Shown here: one piece after another, positions 5,449 to 62,455 of the stretch | Position numbering within the stretch: the first letter of the stretch is position 1 | How the letters are laid out: each line of letters starts with the position of its first letter | Program-made: the position numbers and the translations under genes | Notes under the pieces: model-generated | What the model saw: only the letters and a program-made list of their open reading frames with translations | Told to the model about the DNA's origin: nothing | The model's database searches: none | NCBI GenBank assembly: GCA_023266055.1 | Contig: JAHFRW010000009.1 | Location: 2,709-66,708, forward strand | Direction of reading: 5' to 3' | DNA: 64,000 nucleotides | DNA from: Gammaproteobacteria bacterium | Lineage (GTDB): Bacteria; Pseudomonadota; Gammaproteobacteria; Ga0077554; Ga007554

Positions 5449-6239
5449 CGCACCGCCTTTTCAGGTAATTTGACCCTTTGAAAGTGTTGATTGAATTCTT
5501 CACAGAGGGTTTTCACTACGCTGGACTCAGGAAGACGATGCGCATATACGGTAAATTGCCAAGCATGCGTCAACATACCAAAATATTTCACAAGTTCTGT
5601 CTGGTGAATGAGGCTAACACGCCGCAAACATTCACCTTCAGTGGCGCTGGCTGTAATGGCGACACCATGACGCACTATCAACATGGCTAATGCACCACGA
5701 TATAACAAACCCATCGCCTCAACAGGTTTGCCATGTGACCACAACGACATCGCTGCGGCTGGAATATCGTCAGGTAGGGATTCCTGCCGAACGTCCAGCC
5801 CAAACAAAGCTTCAGGCACTGTGAGTTTCGAAAATGATGGGCGCCTCGCAAACAGCCCCAGCCAGCGATCCCTGTAAACAATCACCACCAACACCATCAC
5901 AAAGACAAGCACCCACAACATGAATTCAAACAATGACGCAAGGTATTGTACGAACTCCATCAGTGAATGCCTCCACTCGTTCTTGCCGCCATCCGCTTTG
6001 CTGGCTTCTCCGATATAACGCAAATTTTTTTCATCTTTCTGCGTCTCGAACTCGGGTCTGGCGAGAATTTCGGTAATGGTTTTTTTTATTTCCGCAGAAA
6101 ATTCCGGTGGAATACGGGACGATGCATGCTCTAACGAAGTCGGCGCATCCTCTGCCAGCACCGGCGGGGCGATAAAAAAACAACATGCCACCATCACACA
6201 TGATATACGGCACAACAGGACATGGCATAAATTATTCAT
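5445..6239 (-). CDS. DUF4129-like protein with signal/TM segments
   Basis: 264 aa; N-terminal signal-like segment plus an internal TM helix; operon position upstream of the DUF4350-like and MoxR genes. Confidence 0.45.
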   Translation of the reverse strand: MNNLCHVLLCRISCVMVACCFFIAPPVLAEDAPTSLEHASSRIPPEFSAEIKKTITEILARPEFETQKDEKNLRYIGEASKADGGKNEWRHSLMEFVQYLASLFEFMLWVLVFVMVLVVIVYRDRWLGLFARRPSFSKLTVPEALFGLDVRQESLPDDIPAAAMSLWSHGKPVEAMGLLYRGALAMLIVRHGVAITASATEGECLRRVSLIHQTELVKYFGMLTHAWQFTVYAHRLPESSVVKTLCEEFNQHFQRVKLPEKAVR

Positions 6240-7114
6240 GCCGCTTCGCTTGCCTCAGAGGACCTTATATTGCCGGCAATATCGTGAAATACCAGCTCGA
6301 TATCCCATCCTTCAATCTGCGTACGTCGATTCAGATACAAGGCAAATCCTGCTGCCACATAAAAAGGCTCAACGATACTGATGGCCATAAAATAGAGCAT
6401 GTTGGTCAACAATCCAACCCATAAGGGCGCATTGTTATCAAGAAGCATTTCTCCAACCTGCTGCTGTACCGTATGGGGTGCCATCAGATAAACAATCGCA
6501 ATTAACGAAAACGCCAATATGCTTTCAAAGTGTATGCACGCTATCGCCAGCCATACTGCCTTGGGGCGCGTGTTTTTATTCAATATCTTTTGCCGTGCGC
6601 GCCGCGTTGCACCACGCAGGCCTTCGAGCTGAAAAATCGGAAGATTGAAAGATCGCGCAAGATCAATGCGTCGGTAAGTTAATGCGGCAATCAGCCCCGT
6701 ACGGAAAAATCCCGGTATTGCCCGCCAGGCGTCGCGTACCGTGGGCGTTTCACCAAATACCTGCCGACCATATACAAACAAGGCAACACGATCATATAAC
6801 GGTTTAAACCACCAGATTATCACCGCCACGATCCAGGCATTATATGCCTCCAGAAACTGCAGCAAGATAACAAGGGGTAACAGCAACGTAAACCAGATCA
6901 TGTACAATGATTTCCAGTAAGCCCGTGCCAGCATAAAACCCAGATCAATGGCCTCATGAGCATTACGAGGCCGCAGCGCCACCGCAAGTTGATTAATCTG
7001 CACGCTGCTTCCCCATGGCCGTAAAATAAAAAGCCACCAGGCACCAGAAAACACCACCAACAATATATTTGATATAAGCAGGAACCAGGGTACTGGATGA
7101 CCAGAATGCTTCAA
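6236..7114 (-). CDS. Polytopic membrane protein (hypothetical), member of the MoxR operon
   Basis: 292 aa with several hydrophobic helices. The 5' end overlaps the upstream ORF by about 120 nt, so the true start is probably an internal codon. Confidence 0.45.
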   Translation of the reverse strand: MKHSGHPVPWFLLISNILLVVFSGAWWLFILRPWGSSVQINQLAVALRPRNAHEAIDLGFMLARAYWKSLYMIWFTLLLPLVILLQFLEAYNAWIVAVIIWWFKPLYDRVALFVYGRQVFGETPTVRDAWRAIPGFFRTGLIAALTYRRIDLARSFNLPIFQLEGLRGATRRARQKILNKNTRPKAVWLAIACIHFESILAFSLIAIVYLMAPHTVQQQVGEMLLDNNAPLWVGLLTNMLYFMAISIVEPFYVAAGFALYLNRRTQIEGWDIELVFHDIAGNIRSSEASEAA

Positions 7115-11472: not shown

Positions 11473-12662
11473 CAACCATAGAACCCAAAATACGACCACC
11501 AGGGATGGTGGTCGCTCCCGGTGTCCTGCCTCCCGCGACACTTGTGCATCCGTGCACGGCGGAAGTGCCGGAAATGCACGATTCCATGGAAGGAGGAGGT
11601 AGAGCATTGCAAGGAACAAATGCTGAGGAGTCGCTTTCCGACCCGCCGCATACGCTACACCCCCCTTCCCCGCATCGGCTTTCGATTGTCATCCCGATGT
11701 ACAATGAAGAGTTGAGCGTTGCCCCAATGGTGGCACGTGTCCATGAAATACTTCAGGATTACACCTATCGATGGGAATTGATCCTGGTCAATGACGGTAG
11801 CGCCGATAATACCGAACACCAGATGAAACATGCTCAGCAGGAATATGGCGCGCATGTACGGGTTGTCAATTTACAACGTAACTTCGGCCAGACAGCCGCC
11901 ATGCAGGCAGGCATTGATACCGCCCGTGGCGACATCATTGCCATGCTCGACGGCGACCTGCAAAATGACCCGATCGACATCCCACGCATGGTAGAACGTC
12001 TGATCAACGAAGATCTTGATCTGGTATCAGGCTGGCGCAAAGACCGCAAGGATGGTTTGTGGCTGCGCAAAGTACCTTCCTGGCTCGCCAACCGGCTGAT
12101 TGGCCGCATCACCCAGGTACATTTGCACGACTACGGTTGTAGTCTCAAGGTATTCCGTGCCCATGTACTGAAAAGTGTGCGGCTCTACGGAGAAATGCAT
12201 CGTTTCATTCCGGCGTGGCTGGCATCCAGTACTTCACCGGCACGTATCAAGGAAGAAATTGTGACTCACCATGCACGCCAGTTCGGTGAATCCAAATACG
12301 GCATCTCGCGTGCATTCCGCGTCATTCTCGATTTGCTTTCAGTGTACTTTTTCATGCGCTACAAAAGCCGCCCCGGACACTTTTTTGGCAAAATCGGTTT
12401 CATCTTTGGCGCGCTGGGCACCGCCATCCTCGGCCACCTGTTTTTTGTAAAAGTGTTTCTGGGTGAAAACATCGGTGCGCGACCCTTGCTGATGATCGGC
12501 GTATTATTCATGGTCGTTGCAGTGCAGCTCTTTACCACCGGCGTACTCAGTGAAATGATGTCGCGCACTTACTTTGAATCAAGCAATACCCAATCCTATA
12601 TTGTACGTAACAAGGAAGCCGTGGCCAACGTCTCCGACGCGGACTGGAAACGGCCCGTGTGA
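11469..12662 (+). CDS. GT2 polyprenyl-phosphate glycosyltransferase (ArnC/GtrB/DPM1-like)
   Basis: LSIVIPMYNEE...VNDGSADNT...DGDLQNDP motifs with C-terminal TM helices, like ArnC. The true start is probably downstream (ATG 11574/11586, or TTG 11607 preceded by GGAGGAGG), because the first ~35 codons are the repeat element D. Confidence 0.85.
   Translation: MTTIEPKIRPPGMVVAPGVLPPATLVHPCTAEVPEMHDSMEGGGRALQGTNAEESLSDPPHTLHPPSPHRLSIVIPMYNEELSVAPMVARVHEILQDYTYRWELILVNDGSADNTEHQMKHAQQEYGAHVRVVNLQRNFGQTAAMQAGIDTARGDIIAMLDGDLQNDPIDIPRMVERLINEDLDLVSGWRKDRKDGLWLRKVPSWLANRLIGRITQVHLHDYGCSLKVFRAHVLKSVRLYGEMHRFIPAWLASSTSPARIKEEIVTHHARQFGESKYGISRAFRVILDLLSVYFFMRYKSRPGHFFGKIGFIFGALGTAILGHLFFVKVFLGENIGARPLLMIGVLFMVVAVQLFTTGVLSEMMSRTYFESSNTQSYIVRNKEAVANVSDADWKRPV
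11538..11632. repeat. Structured repeat element, copy D (partial), between the PAP2 gene and the ArnC-like gene; it supplies the GGAGGAGG Shine-Dalgarno
   Basis: cacttgtgcatccg ... aagtgccgg ... cacgattccatggaaggaggaggtagagca plus a stem-loop gcattg/caaatgc with a bulge in the same position as in A and C. Confidence 0.4.
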
Positions 12663-18630: not shown

Positions 18631-18889
18631 GTTTATAAACTCCAGTCAGAAACTCAGGGTTGCGCATTCAATTCACGTCGAACTTGCTTTGGGCGCTAAC
18701 GTAACGAAATTGAGCGACGCTCGCAGCACATAATGCCAAGGAAGATATGAAAAGCTTCCTTTTCTGCATCCGACCTGCATGGGTGCAGAACCGCTACTCT
18801 GGCAGCAGGCCAGAGAGCGGCTATGCCCTCGTCGGCAACCGTTCTCTGCATCGCCCTACCTTCTCCATCCGTGGCGTCAGGCGAGGTTA

Positions 18890-19162
18890 TTATTTTGTTA
18901 AAATTAACTTTCCATTACTGGTCAATCGCAAACGATATTCTTCACCTGCATGCTCGATAATCAGCTCACGCAAGCCCTTGAGCAAATCACTGCTGGAAAC
19001 ACGCGGTAACACAGCAGGCATGCGCTCAACTTTACGCACTGGCGGCTCTTCCACTACCGTGCATTCACCGCGCCTCCTCGGCAACTGCTGCTCCGCGGCT
19101 CTTGCGTATTCCGTGCCCGGCGGATGTGTTCTTGTACCTGGATTTTGATCGTCTTCAGTCAT
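18890..19162 (-). CDS. hemP: Hemin uptake protein HemP/HmuP-like small protein
   Basis: C-terminus ...EYRLRLTSNGKLILTK matches the HemP signature (Y.LR.T..GKLILTK). RBS AAGGATGG lies upstream of ATG 19162. A Fur-box promoter sits immediately upstream. Confidence 0.6.
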   Translation of the reverse strand: MTEDDQNPGTRTHPPGTEYARAAEQQLPRRRGECTVVEEPPVRKVERMPAVLPRVSSSDLLKGLRELIIEHAGEEYRLRLTSNGKLILTK

Positions 19163-19183: not shown

Positions 19184-19220
19184 TTGAGAATGATTATCAT
19201 TTACATATTTAACTTTGTCA
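19184..19220 (-). promoter_or_regulatory. Sigma70 promoter (TTGACA-N17-GATAAT) with overlapping Fur box (AATGATtATCATT); repeat copy X
   Basis: Minus-strand reading cTTGACAaagttaaatatgtaaatGATAATcattctc. The 6-1-6 palindrome AATGAT-T-ATCATT is the Fur box core. Confidence 0.55.
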
Positions 19221-19558
19221 AGAAAATTTTTAAGCGGGGATATTTATATTGTTTTACGATCTCGCGGAACCCCGGAACTGCTCCTGGCAATTCTTGTGCA
19301 TCCCAGCATGTAGCGGTGTGCTCCTGCATTGCCCCACCTTCCGCAGTGGTCGTCTTTGCTCCAGTGATATGCAAGGGGCCTCGTTCCGGCGTGCCGGGAT
19401 CGTGCTGCGCCAAGCGCATACCCGTCGAAATATCCCACAAGAAATAATCAGAATCACCATGCTTCGACGGGCATCTGACAAATTACGGTGAGATGGCCCT
19501 TTGGTTACAATAATTAGGACTCCTTTACATTCTCGCCGGGATCTGATACCGTTTCAAT

Positions 19559-27402: not shown

Positions 27403-29799
27403 TTAAAACTTCGCTCCAAAGGTAAGCTGCACGGCGCGCTTGGTTCCCGGTATGGAATGCCCCGCGTACACGCCTTCATAGTAGTCTTTGTCCAGGAGAT
27501 TCAGAACGTTCAGCTTTACCGAGTACTTGTCCCAACCATATTGAGCCATCGCATCCCATCGCCAGTAACTCGGCACGGCGTTGATATTGGTATTGTTGGC
27601 ATAGCGCCGCCCCGCGCCTTCTACACCGCCGCCAATCTTCCAGCCACCGCCCAGCTTATACGTATTCCACAGATTAGCCGTGTACTTGGGCGTATTAAGC
27701 GGCGTGTTGCCGCGTGTGTTGGCTTGCTGCGCGGCGGCAACATCAATCTCCGCTGTCATCAATGCTAGCGCGCCAAAAACGTCCCAGTCGGGAGTGATGC
27801 GCCCCACACTTTCGAACTCGATGCCATCCGTGTGGCGTTTTCCCGAAAGCAGATATTGGGTGCTGGCCAGATCTGTATTGCGCTCATTGGTTTTTTCAGA
27901 GCGGAAGATGGCGGTGCGCAACGACAGATTCCCGTCGATCAAATCCCATTTCGCGCCCACCTCAATGTTGCGATTTTTCTCTGGCGGCGTGTTGGCAGAA
28001 CGGTCATCAAGCTGATAAAGCTCCGCCGAGGGGTTGAACGAGGTGCCGTAAGAAACATAATACGTGGTCAGATCAGGCTGGTACATCACGCCAGCACGAT
28101 AGCTCCACACGTTATCGGTGCGCGACAGGTCACCGGCCGGGGCGGGACGGGCATAATCCGCCTTGAGTTGATCATGGCGCGCGCCCAGCACCAGTTTCCA
28201 CATAGTTGCCAGATCCATGACATCCTGCGCGTAAAGTCCAATGGTATGCGCCTTGTAGGTAACATCATCGGTGGGGGTTCTGTCCAGAAATCCGGAGGCG
28301 AGCGGTGGATTCGGATCGGGATTGCCGACGGTGGTGGGTGGATTGATGCCCGTGTTGACGTAGTTCCAGCGATGCGCTTTTTCCTGCATCAACTCCAGGC
28401 CGGCCAGCAATTGATGCTTGATTCCGCCCGTGTTCAGCTTCGTGGTGAAGTCGGTCTGGCTGGTGATGGTGTCTTCTTCACCGCCGCGCGCCTGGCGACC
28501 ACGACAAACAATCGTGCTCCCGGTGATAATTGTTGGGGCAGCGGTAACGCACCCTGTCCCTGTCAGCCGTGGCGCTACAACCCGCAAATCACGTTCGTAG
28601 TCAGCCACGCGCAGCACAGTGCGAACTGAGGTATCGGGATTAAACCGGTGGATGTAACTTGCCGTAGCAATACTAGTTTGGTTGCGCTCATAATCAGCAT
28701 TGGCCATGCCATAAAACCGTGTGACTGGCACGTCGAGAGGCCGACCCTGGAAATAAGGCACGCCGTAATCCGGAATATTGTCTTCTTTTAGATAGTAGTA
28801 AGACAGCGCAAATTCGTTGCGGGTACCTATCCCCCACCGCACTGAAGGTGCAATGCCCCAGCGCTCTTGATTCACCGCATCGCGAAAACTGTCGGTATCG
28901 GTCTTCATGAGATTGACGCGCACTGCGGCATCCTGGCCCACCATCTTATTCAAATCGGCAGTAAGGCGCTTATAGTCGAACGAACCCAGCGTGAGCGTCG
29001 CTTCGTTGCGATCAGCCAGAGAAGGTTGCTTGCTGACCTGATTGATAATGCCGCCCGTCGAACCGCGGCCAAACAGCATCGACGCGGAGCCGCGCAGAAC
29101 ATCAAGCTGCTGGAGGTTAAAAACTTCGCGGTTGTACTGGGCGACATCGCGCATGCCGTCTAGATAAAGATCACCTGCCGCCGAGTAACCGCGTATCGTG
29201 ATATTGTCGCCAATGCGTCCGCCCTCGCCAGCGTTGAAGGTAAGACCAGCGACATTGCGTAGCGCCTCTCTAAACGTGGTGGCGTTGCGATCCTTCATCA
29301 ACTGCTCGGTAACGACAGTGACCGATTGCGGAATATCGCGTGGTAATTGTTGCAGCTTGCCAACGCTGGTCGTGTCGCCCTGGTATCCCTTCGCTTCACT
29401 ATCGCGTTCCGCCTTGACTTTCACTTCGGGGAGGCTTTCCTCTTTCGACTGTGCGGCGGCTTGACCAGCATCGGGTTCAGGCTGTGCAAACGCCGGATTT
29501 GCGACCAGAATCAAGGCTAGGGTTCCGGCACTGACGGCCCCCAAAGGCAATAGTCTGCCAATTTTTAATGGATGGCGTTTGCTTGTCAGACAGTTCTTGC
29601 TGAATCCTTCGCTTTCGCTCTTCCCTGCGCTCACCGCACTTGTGCATCCGCCGTGCAGGGATGCACAAGTGCCGCCAGAGGCACGACTGCATGGATGCAG
29701 GAGGTAGAGCAACGCCGGGAGCGGTTGCCGAGGATGCCGAAAGCGGCCTGCCTGGCGAATGTTTTTTTCTGAAGGTGTCACGAGTCGCATGTGTTTCAT
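27403..29799 (-). CDS. TonB-dependent outer-membrane siderophore receptor (Fiu/PiuA-like). The called ORF includes ~80 upstream codons that are probably 5' leader; the signal peptide begins near 29565
   Basis: Plug and 22-strand barrel features; C-terminal ...TFGAKF. Signal peptide KIGRLLPLGAVSAGTLALILVANPAFA/QPE is about 80 aa inside the ORF, and the upstream part coincides with repeat element A. Confidence 0.9.
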   Translation of the reverse strand: MKHMRLVTPSEKNIRQAGRFRHPRQPLPALLYLLHPCSRASGGTCASLHGGCTSAVSAGKSESEGFSKNCLTSKRHPLKIGRLLPLGAVSAGTLALILVANPAFAQPEPDAGQAAAQSKEESLPEVKVKAERDSEAKGYQGDTTSVGKLQQLPRDIPQSVTVVTEQLMKDRNATTFREALRNVAGLTFNAGEGGRIGDNITIRGYSAAGDLYLDGMRDVAQYNREVFNLQQLDVLRGSASMLFGRGSTGGIINQVSKQPSLADRNEATLTLGSFDYKRLTADLNKMVGQDAAVRVNLMKTDTDSFRDAVNQERWGIAPSVRWGIGTRNEFALSYYYLKEDNIPDYGVPYFQGRPLDVPVTRFYGMANADYERNQTSIATASYIHRFNPDTSVRTVLRVADYERDLRVVAPRLTGTGCVTAAPTIITGSTIVCRGRQARGGEEDTITSQTDFTTKLNTGGIKHQLLAGLELMQEKAHRWNYVNTGINPPTTVGNPDPNPPLASGFLDRTPTDDVTYKAHTIGLYAQDVMDLATMWKLVLGARHDQLKADYARPAPAGDLSRTDNVWSYRAGVMYQPDLTTYYVSYGTSFNPSAELYQLDDRSANTPPEKNRNIEVGAKWDLIDGNLSLRTAIFRSEKTNERNTDLASTQYLLSGKRHTDGIEFESVGRITPDWDVFGALALMTAEIDVAAAQQANTRGNTPLNTPKYTANLWNTYKLGGGWKIGGGVEGAGRRYANNTNINAVPSYWRWDAMAQYGWDKYSVKLNVLNLLDKDYYEGVYAGHSIPGTKRAVQLTFGAKF
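29606..29762. repeat. Structured repeat element, copy A (5' leader region of the TonB-dependent receptor gene)
   Basis: Contains a perfect 14-bp hairpin gcacttgtgcatcc/ggatgcacaagtgc, the ggaggtagagca box, a bulged stem-loop and a gccGAAAgcggc hairpin; about 85% identical to copies B and C. Confidence 0.5.
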
Positions 29800-29815
29800 T
29801 ATCAGGTATTCTCCA
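29791..29815 (-). promoter_or_regulatory. Fur-box-like sequence upstream of the TonB-dependent receptor leader
   Basis: Minus-strand cctGATAATGAaacacat matches GATAATGATAATCATT in about 12 of 16 positions. Confidence 0.3.
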
Positions 29816-29923
29816 TTGCTGTTATCAATGTTGGATGGCTGGCTGGAGAATCCTGAGCAGGTCAGATGGATCTTTGGCTGGCGGTTAGTACTTTACTAAA
29901 TATTGTTTTTCACTATTCCGTTG

Positions 29924-30469
29924 TCATCTCGACCGTAGGGACGACTGCATGGCCACTTCTTCCGGCATCCTGCCTCTTGCGGCACTTGTGCGTCCATGCA
30001 CATCGGATGCAGGAGGTAGAGCAACGCCGGGAGCGGTTGCCGAGAGATCTTTCTCCGGCTCACTCACAAACCCAATCTTTGAAAGACCAACCTTGGCTGC
30101 CTCCGCCATTACGTCGGCCAGCACCTGGTAGCGCGTATTCCTGTCAGCGCGCAGGTGCAGCTCCGGCTGTGGCGTTTTGCGGGCTTCGCTGGCAAAGCGT
30201 GCCATGACAGCGGCCTTGTCGATGGCCTCGCCATTCCAATAGAACGCGCCACCAGCGTCGATCGCAAGTTCGATCTTGTCTGGCTTGGTCAGGGTGGGCG
30301 ACGACGAGGCTTTGGGCAGGTCAATCTTGACCGCATGCGTGAGTAACGGCGCAGTCACGATAAAGATCACCAGCAGCACCAACATCACGTCGATCAGCGG
30401 TACCATGTTGATTTCGGCTATCGGCTGCGGGCCACCGGATTTGCTGAACCCACCGAAAGCCATGGTCAA
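29924..30469 (-). CDS. exbD: Biopolymer transport protein ExbD, with an unusually long C-terminus that reads into repeat copy B
   Basis: MAFGGFSKSGG..INMVPLIDVMLVLLVIFIV is canonical ExbD/TolR; the 181-aa length compares with the usual ~140. Confidence 0.85.
   Translation of the reverse strand: MTMAFGGFSKSGGPQPIAEINMVPLIDVMLVLLVIFIVTAPLLTHAVKIDLPKASSSPTLTKPDKIELAIDAGGAFYWNGEAIDKAAVMARFASEARKTPQPELHLRADRNTRYQVLADVMAEAAKVGLSKIGFVSEPEKDLSATAPGVALPPASDVHGRTSAARGRMPEEVAMQSSLRSR
29941..30044. repeat. Structured repeat element, copy B (rearranged or partial), overlapping the exbD 3' end
   Basis: Shares acgactgcatgg ... gcacttgtgcgtcc ... ggatgcaggaggtagagcaacgccgggagcggttgccgag with copy A. Confidence 0.45.
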
Positions 30470-31263: not shown

Positions 31264-32159
31264 TGTGTTAGTTCAAAGGTGATGGGAATGAGGGCATACA
31301 CATGCAACGCAACGCCATTCTCGGTATGGGGTTTGAAAAGCGCGGCGAGCGCGGAATTGATAGCCGCCTGGTCCAGGCGCGCGAATCCCGACGAAACCTG
31401 AACCAGCGCCTGCTCCGGCCTGCCCTGGGGATTTATCAACACGCGCACGATAACTCTGCCCGCTTCATTCATACGGCGCGAGAGCGATGGATACTCGGGT
31501 TGAGGTGACCGCACATATTCCACACCCGAAACCAGTTTGGGTTGCGGCGCAGGCGGTGGTGTTTTCGGTTCAGGGAGTACAGGTGGCGTTATCATTGCTG
31601 CAGCAGCGACAACGGGTTCTTCCACAACAGGAGCCACCGCAAGCGGAGTCGCCTCGACAGTCGCTGGCGCCTCGTCAGGTGTCAGAGTTGCGGTAAGGAG
31701 CAGCGGCGCTTTCTGTTCAGGCAGTGCAACTACTTTGGGTAACATTACGGATGGCGCGGGCGACGCAACGGCGGGGCGGATGAGATCCACGAAAAGCGGC
31801 GCGGCTTCCTGCACCACCTGACGAACTGCTTCGACTTGTAACAGCGCATAAACAGCGGCCACATGCAACGCCACGACAGTGAGTACGCTCGCGAGTCGCA
31901 GACGCAGGCCGGGCAGGCCGTTAGCGTCACTGGTGCCGTGCGGGGGATTATGCTGCCGGAAATTAAAAGGCTCCAAGCGATTCCTACGGAACCCCTTCTC
32001 GCTTTCTCTCTTCCCTGCGACGTGCATGGAAGCATTAGTGTCGCGGGAGGCACGAACCCAAGGATGGGCGAAGGTAGAACAATGCAGGAGCCATTGTCGA
32101 AGATGCCGAAAGCGGCCTGCCCGGTGAATATCTGCCGTTGTCATCGCTAACCGTTCCAA
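31260..32159 (-). CDS. tonB: Energy transducer TonB (start probably internal; the first ~60 codons coincide with repeat copy C)
   Basis: TM helix, Pro-rich spacer (PVLPEPKTPPPAPQP) and C-terminal TonB domain (...GRVIVRVLINPQGRPEQALVQVSSG...). Confidence 0.8.
   Translation of the reverse strand: MERLAMTTADIHRAGRFRHLRQWLLHCSTFAHPWVRASRDTNASMHVAGKRESEKGFRRNRLEPFNFRQHNPPHGTSDANGLPGLRLRLASVLTVVALHVAAVYALLQVEAVRQVVQEAAPLFVDLIRPAVASPAPSVMLPKVVALPEQKAPLLLTATLTPDEAPATVEATPLAVAPVVEEPVVAAAAMITPPVLPEPKTPPPAPQPKLVSGVEYVRSPQPEYPSLSRRMNEAGRVIVRVLINPQGRPEQALVQVSSGFARLDQAAINSALAALFKPHTENGVALHVYALIPITFELTQ
31994..32128. repeat. Structured repeat element, copy C (5' leader region of tonB)
   Basis: ccttctcgctttctctcttccctgcg ... 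gaaggtagaacaatgcaggagccattgtcgaagatgccgaaagcggcctgcccggtgaat; the stem-loop carries a compensatory change relative to copy A. Confidence 0.5.
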
Positions 32160-32295
32160 AAATCATGACTCTCGCACCGAAAGATGGATTCAGGCCGAGG
32201 GTCAAAATATGATTGGCTGGCTAAGAGGCAGACACATCTGGCTGGCTATAGAAGGCGCGACCTCCAAACGGCCCGCGCCAAAATAGTTCTAAATA

Positions 32296-32316
32296 AGAAT
32301 CATTATCAATGATAGC
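32296..32316 (-). promoter_or_regulatory. Fur-box-like AT-rich hexamer array upstream of the tonB leader
   Basis: aagAATCATTATCAATGATag seen directly. Confidence 0.35.
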
Positions 32317-58359: not shown

Positions 58360-59393
58360 TGGCGACCATGATGTATTGGGAAGCACTGCAACGTGCCCAT
58401 GATGAAGAGTTGGCGCGTGACCCCTTGGTGATCGTCATGGGCGAAGACATTGGCGTAGCAGGTGGCACATACAAGGCCACCAAGGGCCTGTACGACAAAT
58501 ACGGCCCCGAACGGATTATGGACACACCCATTTCCGAAAACGGTTTTACGGGCCTGGGCATCGGCGCGTCATTTATTGGCATACGGCCCATCATTGAATT
58601 GATGTCGGTCAACTTTGCCTGGCTGGCAATGGATCAGATCTTCAACTCCGCCGCCAAAGTACGCTACATGTCAGGCGGCCAGCTCACGGCACCGGTGGTG
58701 ATTCGCTCCCCGGGCGGCACCGCGCACCAGCTGGGTGCACAGCACTCGGCACGCATGGAAAAGGTATTCATGGGCGTCGCGGGCTTACGCGTCGTCACAC
58801 CATCCAATGCACGGCAAGCCTATGGCCTGCTGAAATCAGCCGTACGCTGCGATGACCCGGTGTTCATCTACGAACACGAGCTCATGTACAACATGAAGAG
58901 TGACGTACCCGACGGTGAATACTTTCATCCGCTGGAAGGCTCTGAAATTGCGCGCGCGGGCCGTGACATTACCTTGTTCGGCTATAACATTTCCGTGCAT
59001 TGGTGCCTGCAGGCCGCCGAGATTCTCGCCGCACAGCATGGCATTGACTGTGAAGTGGTAGACCTGTTCTCGCTGAGCCCGCTGGATCGTGCCGGTATCA
59101 AGGCATCCGTCAGCAAAACCCACCGCGCCCTGATTGCTGAAGAAGCTGAAGCCGCGGTGGGTGTTGGCTCGGAAGTCATGGCCATCATCAACGAAGAATG
59201 TTTCTTTGAACTGGATGCGGCACCGGTGCGTGTGTCTGCGAAAAACGTCCCCATCCCCTATAACCACACCCTGGAAAAAGCCGCCGTGCCAAGCTCGAAA
59301 GATATCGTGCACGCTGTGTTAAAGATGCTTGATCACTCCCAGCATCCTACCTCCCGCGACACCAGTACATCCCTGCACGTTGGAAAATCATAA
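58359..59393 (+). CDS. pdhB: Pyruvate/2-oxoacid dehydrogenase E1 component beta subunit
   Basis: Transketolase-like pyrimidine-binding and C-terminal domains; ATG overlaps the E1-alpha stop (TAATG). Confidence 0.9.
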   Translation: MATMMYWEALQRAHDEELARDPLVIVMGEDIGVAGGTYKATKGLYDKYGPERIMDTPISENGFTGLGIGASFIGIRPIIELMSVNFAWLAMDQIFNSAAKVRYMSGGQLTAPVVIRSPGGTAHQLGAQHSARMEKVFMGVAGLRVVTPSNARQAYGLLKSAVRCDDPVFIYEHELMYNMKSDVPDGEYFHPLEGSEIARAGRDITLFGYNISVHWCLQAAEILAAQHGIDCEVVDLFSLSPLDRAGIKASVSKTHRALIAEEAEAAVGVGSEVMAIINEECFFELDAAPVRVSAKNVPIPYNHTLEKAAVPSSKDIVHAVLKMLDHSQHPTSRDTSTSLHVGKS

Positions 59394-62300
59394 TGGCCGA
59401 ACCCTATGCAGTAAAGATGCCCCAGCTTTCCGACACCATGACCGAAGGCGTGATCGTCAGCTGGGAAAAAAAGATTGGCGATAAAATCGAGCGCGGCGAC
59501 ATTGTCGCTACCGTTGAAACCGACAAGGCCATTATGGACGTGGAAGTATTCCGCGACGGTTATTTGTCAGGCCCGCTGATTGCCCCGGACAACATCGTGC
59601 CGGTGGGTGGAGCCATGGCCTATATCGTTGCCAGCGCCGCTGATGTCGTCACCGGCACGGCCGCCGCATCGGCACCTCGTGCAACGCCGGTCGCCGCCGC
59701 ATCACCTGCCACACCGCAACCTGCCACCGCCACTGAACCGGCAGGCGCACTTCACACCATCAAGATGCCGCAGCTTTCCGACACCATGACCGAAGGCGTC
59801 ATGGTGAGCTGGAGCAAAAAACCGGGCGATAAAATCGAACGTGGCGACATTGTGGCACAGGTTGAAACCGACAAGGCCATCATGGATGTCGAAGTGTTCC
59901 GTGATGGTTATTTGTCTGGCCCGATGGCCGCTGTGGACAGCGTTGTCGCCGTAGGTGGTGCACTCGCGTATCTGGTAGAAAAATCGGAACAGGTCGTTAC
60001 CGAAACCAGCCTCACCAGCAGCACGCAACCCACACACCCTACCGCCAGCTCCACCGCGACAGGCACCACACCACCACTCACCTTGCATCATCACAACACC
60101 GGCACAGTGCACATGGATGCACAAGCGCCGTCATCACGGCCCGACAATAAACACGCCACACCTTACGCACGTAAACTGGCAGGCGCATTACACGTTAATC
60201 TCAACAACCTGCGCGGCAGCGGGCCTGCCGGTGTTATCGTTGGCCAGGATGTGTTGCACGCCCAACCCATCGACCGACCGACCGAAATCGCACGTCAGCC
60301 TGCGGCACATGCCATGCCGGAAATTCAGGTGCCCGGTCATGGTCGCGCCATGAATGCCATGGAGCGTGCGGTCAGCCACTCCATGACCGCCTCATTGACC
60401 ATGCCGACATTCCACGTGACTGTCAACGCCAAACCCGACACCTTAATCAAGGCATCAAAGAAAAAAGGCGTGTCACTCACCGTTGCCATCGCCAAGGCCT
60501 GCGCCCTGTCCATGAAAAAACACCCCACCCTCAACTGGGCCTACCAACCAGTGGATAAACTGGTGGAACGCAATGTGGTGGACATCGGCATGGCTGTCTC
60601 TGCCGAGGGCGGTGGATTGGTCGTACCGGTGCTGCGTCATTGCGAATCACGCAGTCTGGAAGAGCTGGATGCGTCGTGGAAAGATCTGGTCGCGCGCGCC
60701 CGCGTGCGTCGCCTCAAACCCGAAGAATATGCCAACCCAACCTTCATGGTATCCAACATGGGCATGCTGGGCGTGAGTTACTTTGACGCCATTCCCACAC
60801 CGGGCACGGCCGCGATTCTGGCCATTTCTTCGGCGGGCGCACAGGGCATGCCGCTCACCATCACGGCCGATCATCGGGTCGCCAACGGCGCCGAGGTTGC
60901 GATGTATCTCAATACCCTGAAGCAGCATATCGAAAACCCGGAGGAATGGATGGGGCCCACTGGACCGGCTATCCCCGAAGGCAAATGGGACTATGACGTC
61001 GTCGTGATCGGTGGCGGCCCGGGGGGCGAAGATTGCGCCCGCGAACTGGCCGAACACGGCATCAAGGTCGCCATGATCAACGACTCGCCGTTACCCGGCG
61101 GCGAATGCCTGTGGCGCGGCTGCATCCCTTCCAAAGCCTGGCGTGCCGCCGCTGACCGCATGCGCGACCGCGCCCACGACGCCCATCTGGGCGTGGAAGG
61201 CACCACCCAAGCCAAACTTAACTGGGATGCGCTGGAAAAAACCCGCCGCCATATCCTCGAAACCCGTGGCGAGATGGCGTTAAAAACGGATACCGGCGTG
61301 AAAATCAAGGTGATCCAGGGATTTGCCTGGTTTGAAAGCGACCACCGCATTTTTGTCGACACCTCCGGCAACAGCACAGATCCACATGCACGTGCCCTGT
61401 TAGGCGACTCCTCAAAAGGCGAACATATCAGCTTCGGCTGTGCCGTGATTGCCACGGGCGCCCCACCCTTTGTACCACCGATTCCAGGTGCAGATACCGG
61501 ACTGAAGAGTGGCGGCGTCCTGACCTCCGACACCGTCTGGAGCCTCGCCAAAACCCCCAAGCGCCTTGGCATCATTGGCGGTGGCGCCATTGGCCTGGAA
61601 ATGGCACAGATCTTTCAGGACTTCGGCACCGAAGTGGTGTTGCTGGAAGGTCGTGACCGCATCCTTGCCGAAGTCGAACCCGAGATCGCCAAAAATCTCA
61701 CCACCCTTCTGGGCAATGATCCGCGCCTGACCATCTACACCTCCGTCAAAATCCAGCAGATCAAGGGCAAGGCGGGTGACATGACCATCACCTATCACGA
61801 TACGCAGGGCGCCGCACAGACCTTTAACTGCGATTACGTGCTCATGGCGACCGGCAAGCGCCCCGCCCTCGCTCCGCTGAAACTGGAAGCCGCAGGCGTG
61901 GTCGTTGCGGATCACGTCATCAAGGCCGATACGCGTGGCCGTAGCAGCGTACCGCACATCTTCGCCGTGGGCGACGTGGTGGGCGGCTACATGCTGGCGC
62001 ATACCGCCGGCCAGCAGGGCCGTGTCGCGGCATCCACCATACTGGGTGAAGATGCAAAGTACGATCAGGACAAGGATTGCGGCGTGATCTTCACCCGCCC
62101 CCAGGCCGCGTTTGTCGGCCTGTCGGTGGATCAGGCCAAGGCACGCGGCATTGACGCCGCTGAAGTAAAAATGCCCATGAGCATCGACGCCAAGGCCATG
62201 ATCACCGCCGAAACTCAGGGCCTGATCAAAATCGTCGCCGACAAGGCCAGCCGCCGCATCATCGGCGTGCACTTCCTCGCCGACCATGCTGACACCCTGA

Positions 62301-62455
62301 TTGGCGAAGCCGTCATGATGGTCTCCGGCAACATGACCCTGTCGCAGGTGGCGCACGCCATTCACCCACACCCGACCCAGACCGAAATGTTTGGCGAAAT
62401 GGCACGGCGGCTGTTGTCACGGTTACGACGCAGCCAGAAAGTGGCGGGCAAATAG
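59393..62455 (+). CDS. Fused dihydrolipoamide acyltransferase (E2: two lipoyl domains, subunit-binding domain, catalytic domain) and dihydrolipoyl dehydrogenase (E3)
   Basis: Two lipoyl domains (ETDKAIMDV twice); catalytic DHRVANG. After ...ENPEEWM a 12-aa linker runs with no stop into a complete E3 (DYDVVVIGGGPGGE...GGECLWRGCIPSK...HAHPT). A GGAGGA precedes the internal in-frame ATG at 60948. Confidence 0.8.
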   Translation: MAEPYAVKMPQLSDTMTEGVIVSWEKKIGDKIERGDIVATVETDKAIMDVEVFRDGYLSGPLIAPDNIVPVGGAMAYIVASAADVVTGTAAASAPRATPVAAASPATPQPATATEPAGALHTIKMPQLSDTMTEGVMVSWSKKPGDKIERGDIVAQVETDKAIMDVEVFRDGYLSGPMAAVDSVVAVGGALAYLVEKSEQVVTETSLTSSTQPTHPTASSTATGTTPPLTLHHHNTGTVHMDAQAPSSRPDNKHATPYARKLAGALHVNLNNLRGSGPAGVIVGQDVLHAQPIDRPTEIARQPAAHAMPEIQVPGHGRAMNAMERAVSHSMTASLTMPTFHVTVNAKPDTLIKASKKKGVSLTVAIAKACALSMKKHPTLNWAYQPVDKLVERNVVDIGMAVSAEGGGLVVPVLRHCESRSLEELDASWKDLVARARVRRLKPEEYANPTFMVSNMGMLGVSYFDAIPTPGTAAILAISSAGAQGMPLTITADHRVANGAEVAMYLNTLKQHIENPEEWMGPTGPAIPEGKWDYDVVVIGGGPGGEDCARELAEHGIKVAMINDSPLPGGECLWRGCIPSKAWRAAADRMRDRAHDAHLGVEGTTQAKLNWDALEKTRRHILETRGEMALKTDTGVKIKVIQGFAWFESDHRIFVDTSGNSTDPHARALLGDSSKGEHISFGCAVIATGAPPFVPPIPGADTGLKSGGVLTSDTVWSLAKTPKRLGIIGGGAIGLEMAQIFQDFGTEVVLLEGRDRILAEVEPEIAKNLTTLLGNDPRLTIYTSVKIQQIKGKAGDMTITYHDTQGAAQTFNCDYVLMATGKRPALAPLKLEAAGVVVADHVIKADTRGRSSVPHIFAVGDVVGGYMLAHTAGQQGRVAASTILGEDAKYDQDKDCGVIFTRPQAAFVGLSVDQAKARGIDAAEVKMPMSIDAKAMITAETQGLIKIVADKASRRIIGVHFLADHADTLIGEAVMMVSGNMTLSQVAHAIHPHPTQTEMFGEMARRLLSRLRRSQKVAGK

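Follow-up and report, generated by a model that had tools for sequence, protein, structure and literature searches.

The 64,000-nt stretch of gammaproteobacterial DNA analysed here, referred to as the window, contains structured repeats in the 5' and 3' regions of iron-uptake genes and of an ArnC-like GT2 gene. A first-pass annotation described four copies (A to D), read them as a REP/MITE-like mobile repeat with RNA-level structure and kept open a role as cis-regulatory RNA or antisense small RNA in the Fur-controlled TonB system. The locus raises the question of whether such repeats are mobile DNA, regulatory RNA or a local feature of the TonB genes.

A covariance model (R1) was built from the 50-nt core of the repeat, and a second model (R2) was used for the H module, which is paralogous to the core. 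In the negative control for R1, 363 kb of unrelated exbD loci, the best match was no better than E=0.16. In the window, R1 detected five clear cores (A, B, C, D and E) and one degenerate core (G); in addition, three core-less H copies are present, all on the minus strand. The four copies described at first are real, with their reported positions and shared blocks (R1 scores of 47.1 to 77.7 bits), but that list missed cores E and G and the three core-less H copies.

Composite copy A (29606-29762, plus strand; R1, R2 and folding) starts with a head (29606-29649) that is an inverted partial H module. This is followed by the 5' arm of an H module (29650-29682) with the hairpin P0 (GTGCA-GGGA-TGCAC), core A (29683-29732, plus strand; R1 77.7 bits, E=4e-25) and the H 3' arm (29731-29760). 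Core A consists of a 48-nt unit, ACGAC...TTGCCG, and the flanking AG. The 14-bp perfect hairpin noted earlier in copy A is present (29636-29649/29659-29672), and so is the C/T-rich head, which corresponds to the purine-rich tail in reverse complement and thus to the inverted partial H. For the tail hairpin gccGAAAgcggc of the first description, a better reading is that it provides the 3' side of a long-range stem closing around the core: the resulting four-helix composite is 97.5% paired over ten sequences, compared with at most 50% in slid controls, and six pairs are changed on both sides.

Composite copy B (29941-30044, plus strand; R1 match 29990-30044, 47.1 bits) forms the 3' end of the exbD ORF. 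Its core is split into two pieces (29941-29952 and 30005-30044) by a core-less H of 54 nt, which is nested in reverse orientation in the loop of the first hairpin, P2 (29952-30004, minus strand; R2 63.3 bits, E=1.5e-12). Without this insert, core B is 100% identical to core A, from which it is separated by 312 nt, and both share a rare variant of the second hairpin, P3. The identity of the two cores, with B later gaining its H insert, points to recent activity in the window. Composite copy C (31994-32128, plus strand; R1 55.2 bits, R2 33.1 bits) is built from a head, an H 5' arm (32019-32051), a divergent core (32052-32101) and an H 3' arm, and is located between a Fur box (32292-32310) and the tonB start. 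Copies A, B and C are antisense to their genes.

The remaining copies are more dispersed. Core D (11578-11627, plus strand; R1 60.6 bits) has a closing stem, CGGAAA/TTTCCG, at about 11568-11573 and 11635-11640, and a core-less H lies directly upstream of copy D (11508-11560, minus strand; R2 72.3 bits, E=1.6e-14). Core E (18831-18880, minus strand; R1 46.3 bits, E=4.5e-14) is located directly 3' of the hemP stop codon and is oriented as hemP; more palindromes are found beyond it (18764-18830). The degenerate core G (19283-19353, minus strand), a weak call by R1 (11.1 bits, E=0.1) and repeat search, lies upstream of hemP between its promoter and a MarR-like gene; it contains a 35-nt H-like insert in the P3 loop, and GTGG replaces GTAG. 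The third core-less H, module F, is found at 59329-59381 (minus strand; R2 61.3 bits).

The core is 47 or 48 nt long and comprises ACGA, the hairpin P2 (CTGCA-NGGA-TGCAG), GAGGTAGA, the hairpin P3 (GCAAYGC-A(N)GGA-GC-bulge-RTTGC) and a terminal CG. The H module of about 54 nt follows the same plan, with P0 and its NGGA loop, AAGTG and a second hairpin with an AGGA loop. The stems covary: P2 occurs as CTGCA/TGCAG, CTCCA/TGGAG, CTACA/TGTAG, CGGCA/TGCCG and CCCCA/TGGGG, while in P3 a C-G pair is changed to T-A in many copies and the whole stem is replaced in some (ATTTCAT/ATGAAAT; ACAATGC/GCcATTGT). The compensatory changes reported for the bulged stem-loop of copies A, C and D were recovered with R1. 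In contrast to the stems, ACGA, the GGA loops, GGTAGA and CGAG are fixed, and GGTAGA with the bulged P3 is found in all clear copies, including C, E and a nested copy in L076, which were identified independently of the seed described below.

The first description also proposed structure at the RNA level, for which the data give no specific support. The folding energy is alike on both strands (-71 versus -69.9 kcal/mol), G·T pairs are no more frequent than A·C pairs (5 versus 8-20), and the orientation relative to genes is near random, with 26 sense and 19 antisense copies in intergenic regions and 12 versus 13 in ORFs. These observations are accounted for equally by a DNA palindrome and by an RNA. 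A three-way junction at the RNA level that requires a stem P1 was also considered and dropped, as a closing stem surrounds only a minority of cores; an adjacent stem of at least 6 bp, reflecting flank complementarity, is present in 7.5% of the copies versus 0.7% in controls. A terminal inverted repeat was likewise rejected: ACGACTGC and GCAGTTGC are able to pair, yet this pairing does not covary, and the unit ends ACGACTGC and GCAGTTGCCG pair in part only, again without covariation.

Genome loci were collected with a 19-nt seed pattern, which yields a sample biased to near-consensus copies. At least 120 genome loci carry the seed, nearly all of them score 70-81 bits with R1, a range also seen in Pseudoalteromonas chromids and in six of ten IMG/VR contigs, and the 31 core bases outside the seed constraint are almost invariant. 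Near-identical cores are found at more than 100 loci in Methylococcales, Shewanella, Pseudoalteromonas, Cellvibrionales, Lysobacterales, Mariprofundaceae and some IMG/VR contigs; the core also occurs in Arenicellales and others, and Alteromonadales are represented. The family extends over orders of Gammaproteobacteria and into Zetaproteobacteria, and the search for further copies, proposed as a check on the first reading, argues against mere local duplication. The copy number looks low: an assembly has 2-5 seed matches, and a Pseudoalteromonas chromid of 0.8 Mb has 1-5; among plasmids, the full core is found only in these chromids. In E. coli, no element was detected except for a 37-nt partial, hybrid copy within the BREX gene pglX, and this partial match is also present in pglX on one Moellerella and one Salmonella plasmid. 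Rfam contains nothing relevant to the window or to 14 loci at the gathering threshold, nor to positions 29500-30150 at E<=10. A full-text literature search for the core sequence retrieved no paper, and no description of the element was found in the literature on REPs, MITEs and CsrA.

The presence of the same 50 bases in distant orders indicates either a widely shared enzyme or a constraint by host function. Selection on a host function is possible, given that the sequence is the same at low copy number.

Evidence for mobility comes from the comparison of occupied and empty sites. Contig L089 contains an H without a core (...GGGAGGCAGGATGCC...) and another that is filled (...GGGAGGC[48 nt]AGGATGCC...); the two differ by exactly the 48-nt unit and are otherwise identical, and the target-site duplication that was looked for is not seen at these sites. 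In the alignment of a squalene-hopene cyclase (SHC) (L036) with PDB entry 1gsz, a 16-residue gap coincides exactly with the core, and further in-frame copies are located in CobN-, CobK- and RsmB-like ORFs. All six in-gene copies have the 48-nt form and none the 47-nt form. Nested copies are found in L005 (three-deep), in L076 and in copy B of the window, and 47-nt tandem arrays are present in Shewanella and Methylobacter. The mobile-repeat part of the first description is supported by these features, together with the copies in distant genomes. For copies A, B and C themselves, metagenomes offer no exbD relative above 71% identity, too distant for a fine-scale empty-site comparison.

On the GTAG strand, the unit boundaries are S^ACGA and GCCG^AGR: successive bases of the 3' flank are A (96% of the copies), G (87%) and R (87%), and the base preceding the unit is G or C in 72%. 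A new copy integrates immediately 5' of AGR, most often AGGA, without target duplication, and some copies occupy loops of existing hairpins, among them the modules' own A(N)GGA loops. Twenty-six copies are located between convergent and eight between divergent genes. The GC skew on the core strand is positive at 47 and negative at 53 of 100 loci (p=0.6), a comparison of noisy 8-kb skews that excludes a strong bias only.

We consider it probable, at roughly 0.7, that the repeats are assembled from two kinds of miniature, non-autonomous mobile DNA module that are paralogous to each other. Copies A and C have a core in the AGGA loop of H, and copy B has H in the P2 loop of a core; nested composites and tandem arrays arise by this insertion into module loops. 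Integration would presumably take place on folded single-stranded DNA. If this description holds, the element is among the smallest mobile units seen in bacteria, with a defined unit of 47/48 nt and a one-sided target (S^AGR), and its targeting of its own loops explains how mosaic structured repeats are built.

As for the enzyme, we tentatively propose that a hairpin-recognising nick-and-join activity of the HUH/Y1 type, similar to RAYT or IS200/IS605, might act in trans. When the ORFs of all loci (1.8 Mb) were scanned for Y1/RAYT motifs, a single one matched (L026), located 3.7 kb from a core and without a flanking module. No Y1 transposase family is found among the 25 commonest Pfam families of 149 neighbour ORFs, and a search for a split arrangement of left hairpin, gene and right hairpin found none; in L105, two inverted cores 3.3 kb apart enclose housekeeping genes only. 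The lack of a skew bias argues against strict IS608-like lagging-strand targeting. On the GTAG strand, RAYTs cut at CT (PMC8266576); the element has AG there and CT on the opposite strand, and does not fit a simple RAYT model in its details. The junction sequences fit neither an integron attC model nor one with an IS110-type core dinucleotide. The enzyme option can be tested with the unit and target defined here, while CsrA binding is the obvious candidate for a host function.

Among known systems, REP/REPIN-RAYT elements share with the present repeats a short imperfect bulged palindrome after an invariant GTAG (here GGTAGA and P3), covarying stems with a fixed tag, an enrichment between convergent and co-directional genes, inverted dimers (as in copy A) and the lack of terminal inverted repeats and target duplication. 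In contrast to REPINs, which are lineage-specific and vertically inherited, the sequence of the element is the same across several orders; its copy number looks low, whereas REPs occur in hundreds, and it has two hairpins, a second conserved tag (ACGA) and frequent genic copies. In addition, no element-flanked RAYT gene was found in the 8-kb genome pieces. PATEs of the IS200/IS605 group also have a hairpin near each end (P2 and P3 in the element), neither terminal inverted repeats nor target duplication, single-stranded loops as targets and a short conserved flank at only one end of the insertion (for the element, AGR on the 3' side in about 87-96%, with a weakly constrained 5' flank). The element is far smaller than PATEs, however, no cognate TnpA or TnpB was found for it, it lacks the GC-skew orientation bias of IS608-type elements, and the distance from guide to cleavage site departs from the IS608 model.

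In their behaviour, the repeats resemble Rickettsia palindromic elements (RPEs) and genic MITEs, as they occur in-frame in conserved housekeeping genes with the ORF kept open (SHC, CobN, CobK, RsmB and the ExbD and E1-beta tails) and, like RPEs, are free of stops in most reading frames. Their sequence is unrelated to RPEs, their length is about a third of that of RPEs, and they are found in free-living Gammaproteobacteria and Zetaproteobacteria instead of Rickettsia. Pneumococcal BOX, E. coli BIMEs and Neisseria Correia elements similarly consist of short modules in variable order and orientation, which are located in UTRs and can supply expression signals. Different from these, the modules described here nest in each other's hairpin loops at AGR and are not confined to one genus; they also lack the terminal inverted repeats and TA duplication of Correia elements, just as they lack the terminal inverted repeats and direct target-site duplication of classical (DDE-type) MITEs.

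The alternative that survives best is that the modules act mainly as RNA, which would be compatible with DNA mobility. Their hairpin loops present A(N)GGA, the recognition motif of CsrA/RsmA. Once transcribed, copies would bind CsrA dimers, and the element would either place the host mRNA under CsrA control, as in copy D, or collectively titrate CsrA, like a dispersed CsrB/RsmZ or TwoAYGGAY-type RNA. Several features are in line with this. The P3 loop, which is outside the seed constraint, is A(N)GGA in 70 of 91 distinct copies, with both AGGA and ANGGA lengths; the P0 loop of H has GGA in nine of ten copies and the second H loop is AGGA; GGAGG is present between the hairpins; and P2 reads A-N-GGA-Y in window copies that were detected by the model and not by the seed. 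Like TwoAYGGAY (RF01731) and Csr/Rsm sponge RNAs, the element occurs in Gammaproteobacteria and has at least two short hairpins with a GGA (often AYGGAY) loop. At its base, ACGA might pair with CGAG through tandem G·A pairs, as reported for TwoAYGGAY, for which CsrA binding is predicted (PMC4333381). In copy D, GGAGGAGG (11592-11599) is followed, after 7 nt, by the in-frame TTG (11607) of the GT2 gene, which would place Shine-Dalgarno sequence and start inside the element, and the conservation across orders at low copy number would also suit a host function. Nevertheless, neither a sense preference nor an excess of G·T pairs is observed, window copies A, B and C are antisense, and the element also lies within coding sequences. 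The unit has no promoter or terminator of its own and is therefore no free-standing RNA gene, and it gives no covariance-model match to TwoAYGGAY or the Csr/Rsm families, even at E<=10. Moreover, the GGA in P2 of the database copies is imposed by the search pattern, and AGGA is also the preferred insertion target, which alone would explain the persistence of A(N)GGA loops. Overall, we regard a role mainly as RNA as unlikely.

A combination of both ideas, in which the unit is a hitherto undescribed, pan-gammaproteobacterial 'portable CsrA site', a mobile double hairpin that nests in itself and whose A(N)GGA loops are at once integration target and binding site of the global regulator CsrA/RsmA, and whose near-invariance reflects host function, appears quite doubtful. 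If it were true, the spread of the element would rewire post-transcriptional control, e.g., through a CsrA-gated Shine-Dalgarno sequence and start as in copy D.

That the repeats are leaders acting in cis, or antisense small RNAs, which specifically serve the Fur-controlled TonB/haem uptake system is highly improbable. Fur-box matches are present upstream of hemP (19186-19204, 3 mismatches, none expected by chance) and, at the position given above, upstream of tonB, in agreement with the local context first described. Copies A, B, C and E are located in leaders, spacers or 3' regions of iron-uptake genes, and one Pseudoalteromonas copy has an iron ABC transporter on one side and a TonB-dependent receptor on the other. 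On the other hand, 80 homologous exbD loci (363 kb) contain no copy, the window also has copies at the GT2 gene and inside the E1-beta ORF, and elsewhere the element adjoins or sits inside trpS, SHC, cobN, rsmB and pglX. The 149 neighbour ORFs match 194 unrelated Pfam families, with no TonB, Plug, ExbD or other iron-uptake family among the 25 commonest. The absence from exbD loci and the unrelated neighbours leave the regulatory role suggested at first unsupported.

That the similarity is merely a recent local duplication or chance, or that the unit is a protein-coding peptide repeat, is hardly credible. In its favour, cores A and B are identical and close together, five of six core reading frames are open and several copies are translated within real ORFs. 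On the other side, there are over 100 copies in unrelated genomes, genic copies occur in both orientations and differing frames, a length of 47 nt is not divisible by 3, it is the nucleotide sequence that is conserved, with compensatory changes in the stems, and the encoded peptides have no Pfam match. A self-cleaving ribozyme was also rejected, as the element has no likeness to known classes and sense copies lie inside essential mRNAs.

For the genes in the window, the composite mobile modules favoured here would have effects that are side-effects of insertion. The reported overlaps with ORF ends were confirmed by domain boundaries: in the receptor ORF (798 aa) the Plug domain begins at residue 154, in the ExbD ORF (181 residues) the ExbD domain stops at 138, and in the GT2 ORF (496 residues) the GT2 domain begins at 171. 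The insertions add structure to the leaders of tonB and the receptor gene, and copy D probably supplies the Shine-Dalgarno sequence and the TTG start of the GT2 gene. Genome annotation is affected as well, since the elements would give false N-terminal extensions, real C-terminal tails (ExbD, E1-beta) and internal 16-aa inserts (SHC, CobN); they can also provide start signals, and R1 and R2 can be used for masking or flagging them. ExbD is predicted to carry an element-encoded tail of 40 aa, LSATAPGVALPPASDVHGRTSAARGRMPEEVAMQSSLRSR. Similarly, the E1-beta ORF ends in ~20 codons that lie within module F and specify the tail DHSQHPTSRDTSTSLHVGKS; two contigs with the same E1-beta protein represent one organism (99.8-100% identity).

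All four repeat copies, A to D, lie where the first-pass annotation had placed them and carry the blocks it described, and exact-seed repeat finding and blastn linked them to one another. The same searches of the window also linked 18764-18895, 19278-19341 and 59330-59385, which had not been listed. R1, a covariance model built on a 50-nt stretch present in all copies, detected a core on the plus strand in A (29683-29732, 77.7 bits), D (11578-11627, 60.6 bits), C (32052-32101, 55.2 bits) and B (29990-30044, 47.1 bits), and on the minus strand in the new copy E (18831-18880, 46.3 bits) and in the degenerate copy G (19283-19353, 11.1 bits, E=0.1). Because no R1 match in 363 kb of unrelated loci fell below E=0.16, the core family is far above chance level.

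The core is a 47- or 48-nt unit consisting of ACGA, hairpin P2 (CTGCA-NGGA-TGCAG), GAGGTAGA, hairpin P3 (GCAAYGC-A(N)GGA-GC, one bulged base, RTTGC) and CGAG. The first-pass annotation had proposed counting copies beyond the window; scanning the seed GGANGNAGGAGGTAGAGCA against one genome per species yielded at least 120 loci, compared with about 70 matches expected by chance for its 17 specified bases, and nearly all seed loci listed contain the whole core, including 31 bases outside the seed pattern. A Microbacterium match (L053) was a chance match to the seed. The hosts comprise Methylobacter and other Methylococcales, Shewanella, Cellvibrionaceae, Lysobacterales, Arenicellales, Ectothiorhodospiraceae, Acidiferrobacterales, Neptunomonas, Endozoicomonas and Mariprofundaceae; Pseudoalteromonas chromids carry one to five copies each, and the element is absent from E. 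coli. True cores were present in six of ten IMG/VR matches. These six contigs, classed as viral (L207-L212), score 71-80 bits, two of them with two copies, and would represent a possible horizontal route unless they include host flanks.

The unpaired motifs ACGA, GGA, GGTAGA and CGAG are constant, and the stem bases covary. P2 is found as CTGCA/TGCAG, CTCCA/TGGAG, CTACA/TGTAG, CGGCA/TGCCG or CCCCA/TGGGG, and many copies exchange C-G for T-A in P3. Window copy C (ACAATGC/GCcATTGT) and a nested copy at locus L076 (ATTTCAT/ATGAAAT) have an entirely different P3. The seed imposed GGA in P2 and GGTAGAGCA on the database copies; at these positions the independent evidence is that of the window and nested copies alone. 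In a recurrent variant (L002, L008, L039, L057, L061, L066, L118 and L041) an extra hairpin of ~22 nt (ccaaaagtaggcgctttaggcg) is located between AGAGCA and the remainder of P3, and resembles a further small module, always nested at this position.

We consider it highly probable (about 85%) that the core is a mobile, non-autonomous DNA module. In contig L089, an empty site (...GTGTCGCGGGAGGCAGGATGCCGGAAGCGACC...) and a filled site (...GTGTCGCGGGAGGC[48 nt]AGGATGCCGGAAGCGACC...) differ by precisely ACGAC...TTGCCG, no base being duplicated or lost. Alignment of the Methylobacter squalene-hopene cyclase with PDB 1gsz leaves a gap of 16 residues exactly at the core, and further in-frame cores, in either orientation, occupy CobN-, CobK- and RsmB-like ORFs, among others; the 48-nt form is found in all six in-gene cores, the 47-nt form in 37 of 103 copies overall. 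At L005, three 5' halves precede three 3' halves, the pattern that successive insertions at CAGG^AGGTAG would produce, and at L076 a divergent core is nested in the P3 loop, window copy B being a further case of nesting. The bases 3' of TTGCCG are A (96%), G (87%) and R (87%), and the base 5' of the unit is G or C in 72%; therefore, the target is S^AGR, mostly ^AGGA, a motif of the modules' own loops. Some cores are placed at the apex of other hairpin repeats, e.g. gtcattcccgcgc[core]gcgggaatcc, and others inside a palindromic MITE of ~190 nt, bounded by CTAGGAGYCTGTC terminal inverted repeats and common to five genomes. Head-to-tail arrays with a 47-nt period have AG after the last unit only.

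Such arrays comprise two to four copies in Shewanella metallivivens, Methylobacter MAGs and one Cellvibrionaceae MAG (L037, L040, L088, L117 and L010/L072). The MITE-core composite was seen at L016, L046, L071, L085 and L107 (and L014), in Sedimenticola, Lysobacteraceae, Neptunomonas and unclassified gammaproteobacterial MAGs.

In window copies A and C and at ten loci of other genomes, the core is enclosed by a second, paralogous module, H, with the plan P0 (GTGCA-NGGA-TGCAC), AAGTG and CCGC-NAGA-GGC-AGGA-TGCC-GRAA-GCGG. In ten sequences, the long-range stems P1a and P1b around the core are paired in 97.5% of cells, with six pairs changed on both sides; slid controls reached at most 50%. The local 'gccGAAAgcggc hairpin' of the first-pass annotation is less well borne out: at L030, GGC...GCC has become GCC...GGC, by which the long-range pair is kept and the local hairpin lost. 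Core-less H copies, detected by the covariance model R2, are located on the minus strand at 11508-11560 (72 bits), 29952-30004 (63 bits) and 59329-59381 (61 bits). R2 also detected many copies in other contigs (e.g. several each in L089 and L073); H is thus a repeat in its own right that shares the two-hairpin plan of the core.

Copy A is composed of an inverted partial H followed by an H bearing a core. Its C/T-rich head is a real block, to be read as the reverse complement of the tail, i.e., the inverted partial H, and its perfect 14-bp hairpin forms where the two inverted H arms meet. Copy B is a core with a 54-nt H in reverse orientation in the P2 loop, copy C an H enclosing a divergent core, and copy D a core-less H (minus strand) and, next to it, a core closed by a stem of its own, CGGAAA/TTTCCG. 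Without its insert, B equals the core of A base for base; the identical cores of A and B (29683-29732; 29941-30044) share a rare P3 variant, GCCGGGAGCGG, found elsewhere only in L004, which points to recent local copying with H probably inserted into B afterwards.

A single 1532-codon ORF of an uncultured gammaproteobacterium (L073, 585-4411, plus strand) holds at least six H modules and one core, all oriented alike. In BREX-1 pglX of E. coli ZF34 (L214, 150-205), an in-frame hybrid joins a core 5' part (ACGACTGCATGGATGCAGGAGGTAGAGCG) to an H-like 3' part (ACGCAGGATGCCAAAGCCGAC); pglX with this hybrid is also present on Moellerella and Salmonella plasmids (H7 and H8), the allele having travelled among enterobacterial hosts, and L014 contains a similar hybrid.

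Whether the modules act as RNA was considered as a rival, or an addition, to DNA mobility. They could be recognised by CsrA/RsmA: the P3 loop is A(N)GGA in 70 of 91 copies, free of seed constraint, P0 has a GGA loop in 9/10, and GGAGG is sited between hairpins, a combination that matches the CsrA/RsmA recognition pattern. The A(N)GGA loops also recall the TwoAYGGAY motif, a predicted CsrA binder with tandem G·A pairs (PMC4333381). However, neither strand is singled out by the data. Copy A folds with -71 kcal/mol, and with -69.9 on the other strand (z ~ -1.9 for both), and G·T pairs (5) do not outnumber A·C pairs (8, or 20 with the loop-closing pair). By ORF-based gene calls, copies between co-directional genes are sense in 26 cases and antisense in 19, while 26 copies lie between convergent and 8 between divergent genes; inside ORFs, 12 are sense and 13 antisense. 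Rfam gave no match for the element in the window, at 14 loci or in 29500-30150 at E<=10. Of the 'RNA-level structure' suggested previously, the covarying hairpins hold, but folding, pairs and orientation reveal no strand preference.

The repeats had also been linked to iron uptake, and locally the context is as described: the neighbourhood encodes a TonB-dependent receptor, exbD, exbB, tonB and hemP, with Fur-box matches at 19186-19204 (hemP; three mismatches to the 19-mer consensus, none expected by chance) and 32292-32310 (tonB). Copy C separates the start of tonB from the Fur box of that gene, A and B fall in the interval from exbD to the receptor gene, and E is directly 3' of hemP. The Fur box upstream of tonB suggests that tonB-exbB-exbD, perhaps with the receptor gene, constitute one iron-regulated operon; no comparable match lies directly upstream of the receptor gene. 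The general association fails, since the core is absent from 80 homologous exbD loci and the 149 ORFs flanking cores elsewhere represent 194 Pfam families, with iron uptake and transposition absent among the 25 commonest. Thus, the association is local to the window.

For the core as a mobile DNA module, the sequences document a defined unit, a one-sided target, insertion without duplication, use of hairpin loops and self-nesting. Integration would occur on folded single-stranded DNA, through a nick-and-join enzyme specific for hairpins and acting in trans. Formally, G^ACGA, the donor junction visible between units of tandem arrays, resembles the target S^AGGA, as if both were variants of a single site, S^ASGA. 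Among known enzymes, those of the HUH/Y1 class (RAYT, IS200/IS605) come closest; the core resembles their elements in combining GTAG with a bulged hairpin, in having subterminal hairpins and in lacking TIR or TSD. In contrast to the RAYT system, which cleaves at CT on the GTAG strand (PMC8266576), the core has CT on the opposite strand. This counts against HUH/Y1, as do the failure to find a cognate transposase gene by ORF motif scan, split-element search or among the 25 commonest neighbour Pfam families, and the unbiased orientation relative to GC skew (47 vs 53 loci); a mobilising enzyme of the HUH class is plausible, though less likely than not. L026 contains, at 5574-6297 on the reverse strand, a RAYT/IS200-like Y1 transposase ORF (HUH motif ...NHIHLL..., then ...YIELNPV...), 3.7 kb from a degenerate core and without REP-like repeats at its flanks. 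Small palindromic repeats of the REP/MITE-like kind are known; the two-hairpin unit, its cross-order conservation, the S^AGR target and self-nesting with a paralogous module were not found in Rfam or the searchable literature, although they may have been described elsewhere.

The insertions also shape window genes. As the exbD ORF has no stop before 29924, ExbD really ends in a 40-residue tail from copy B, and H encodes a 20-residue end tail of E1-beta. The 'extensions' at the N-terminus of the receptor, TonB and GT2 (ArnC-like) ORFs are optional readings; Pfam domains start at residue 154 (receptor) and 171 (GT2), and TonB_C covers residues 219-297. The ribosome-binding site attributed to copy D gains support from the sole canonical in-frame GT2 start near the domain, TTG 11607, 7 nt 3' of the element's GGAGGAGG; copy D thus probably supplies the start codon as well.

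A 1020-aa ORF (59393-62455, plus strand) fuses E2 to E3: judging from the Pfam domains of this gene on contig L122, it joins a pair of lipoyl domains, an E3-binding domain and the catalytic domain of a 2-oxoacid dehydrogenase (E2) to a full pyridine-nucleotide disulfide oxidoreductase (E3). The two lipoyl domains correspond to a 241-nt direct repeat (59414-59654 and 59762-60002), and a weak H match in the E2-E3 linker (60104-60143, plus strand; 17 bits, E=0.03) may be an old, decayed in-frame insertion.
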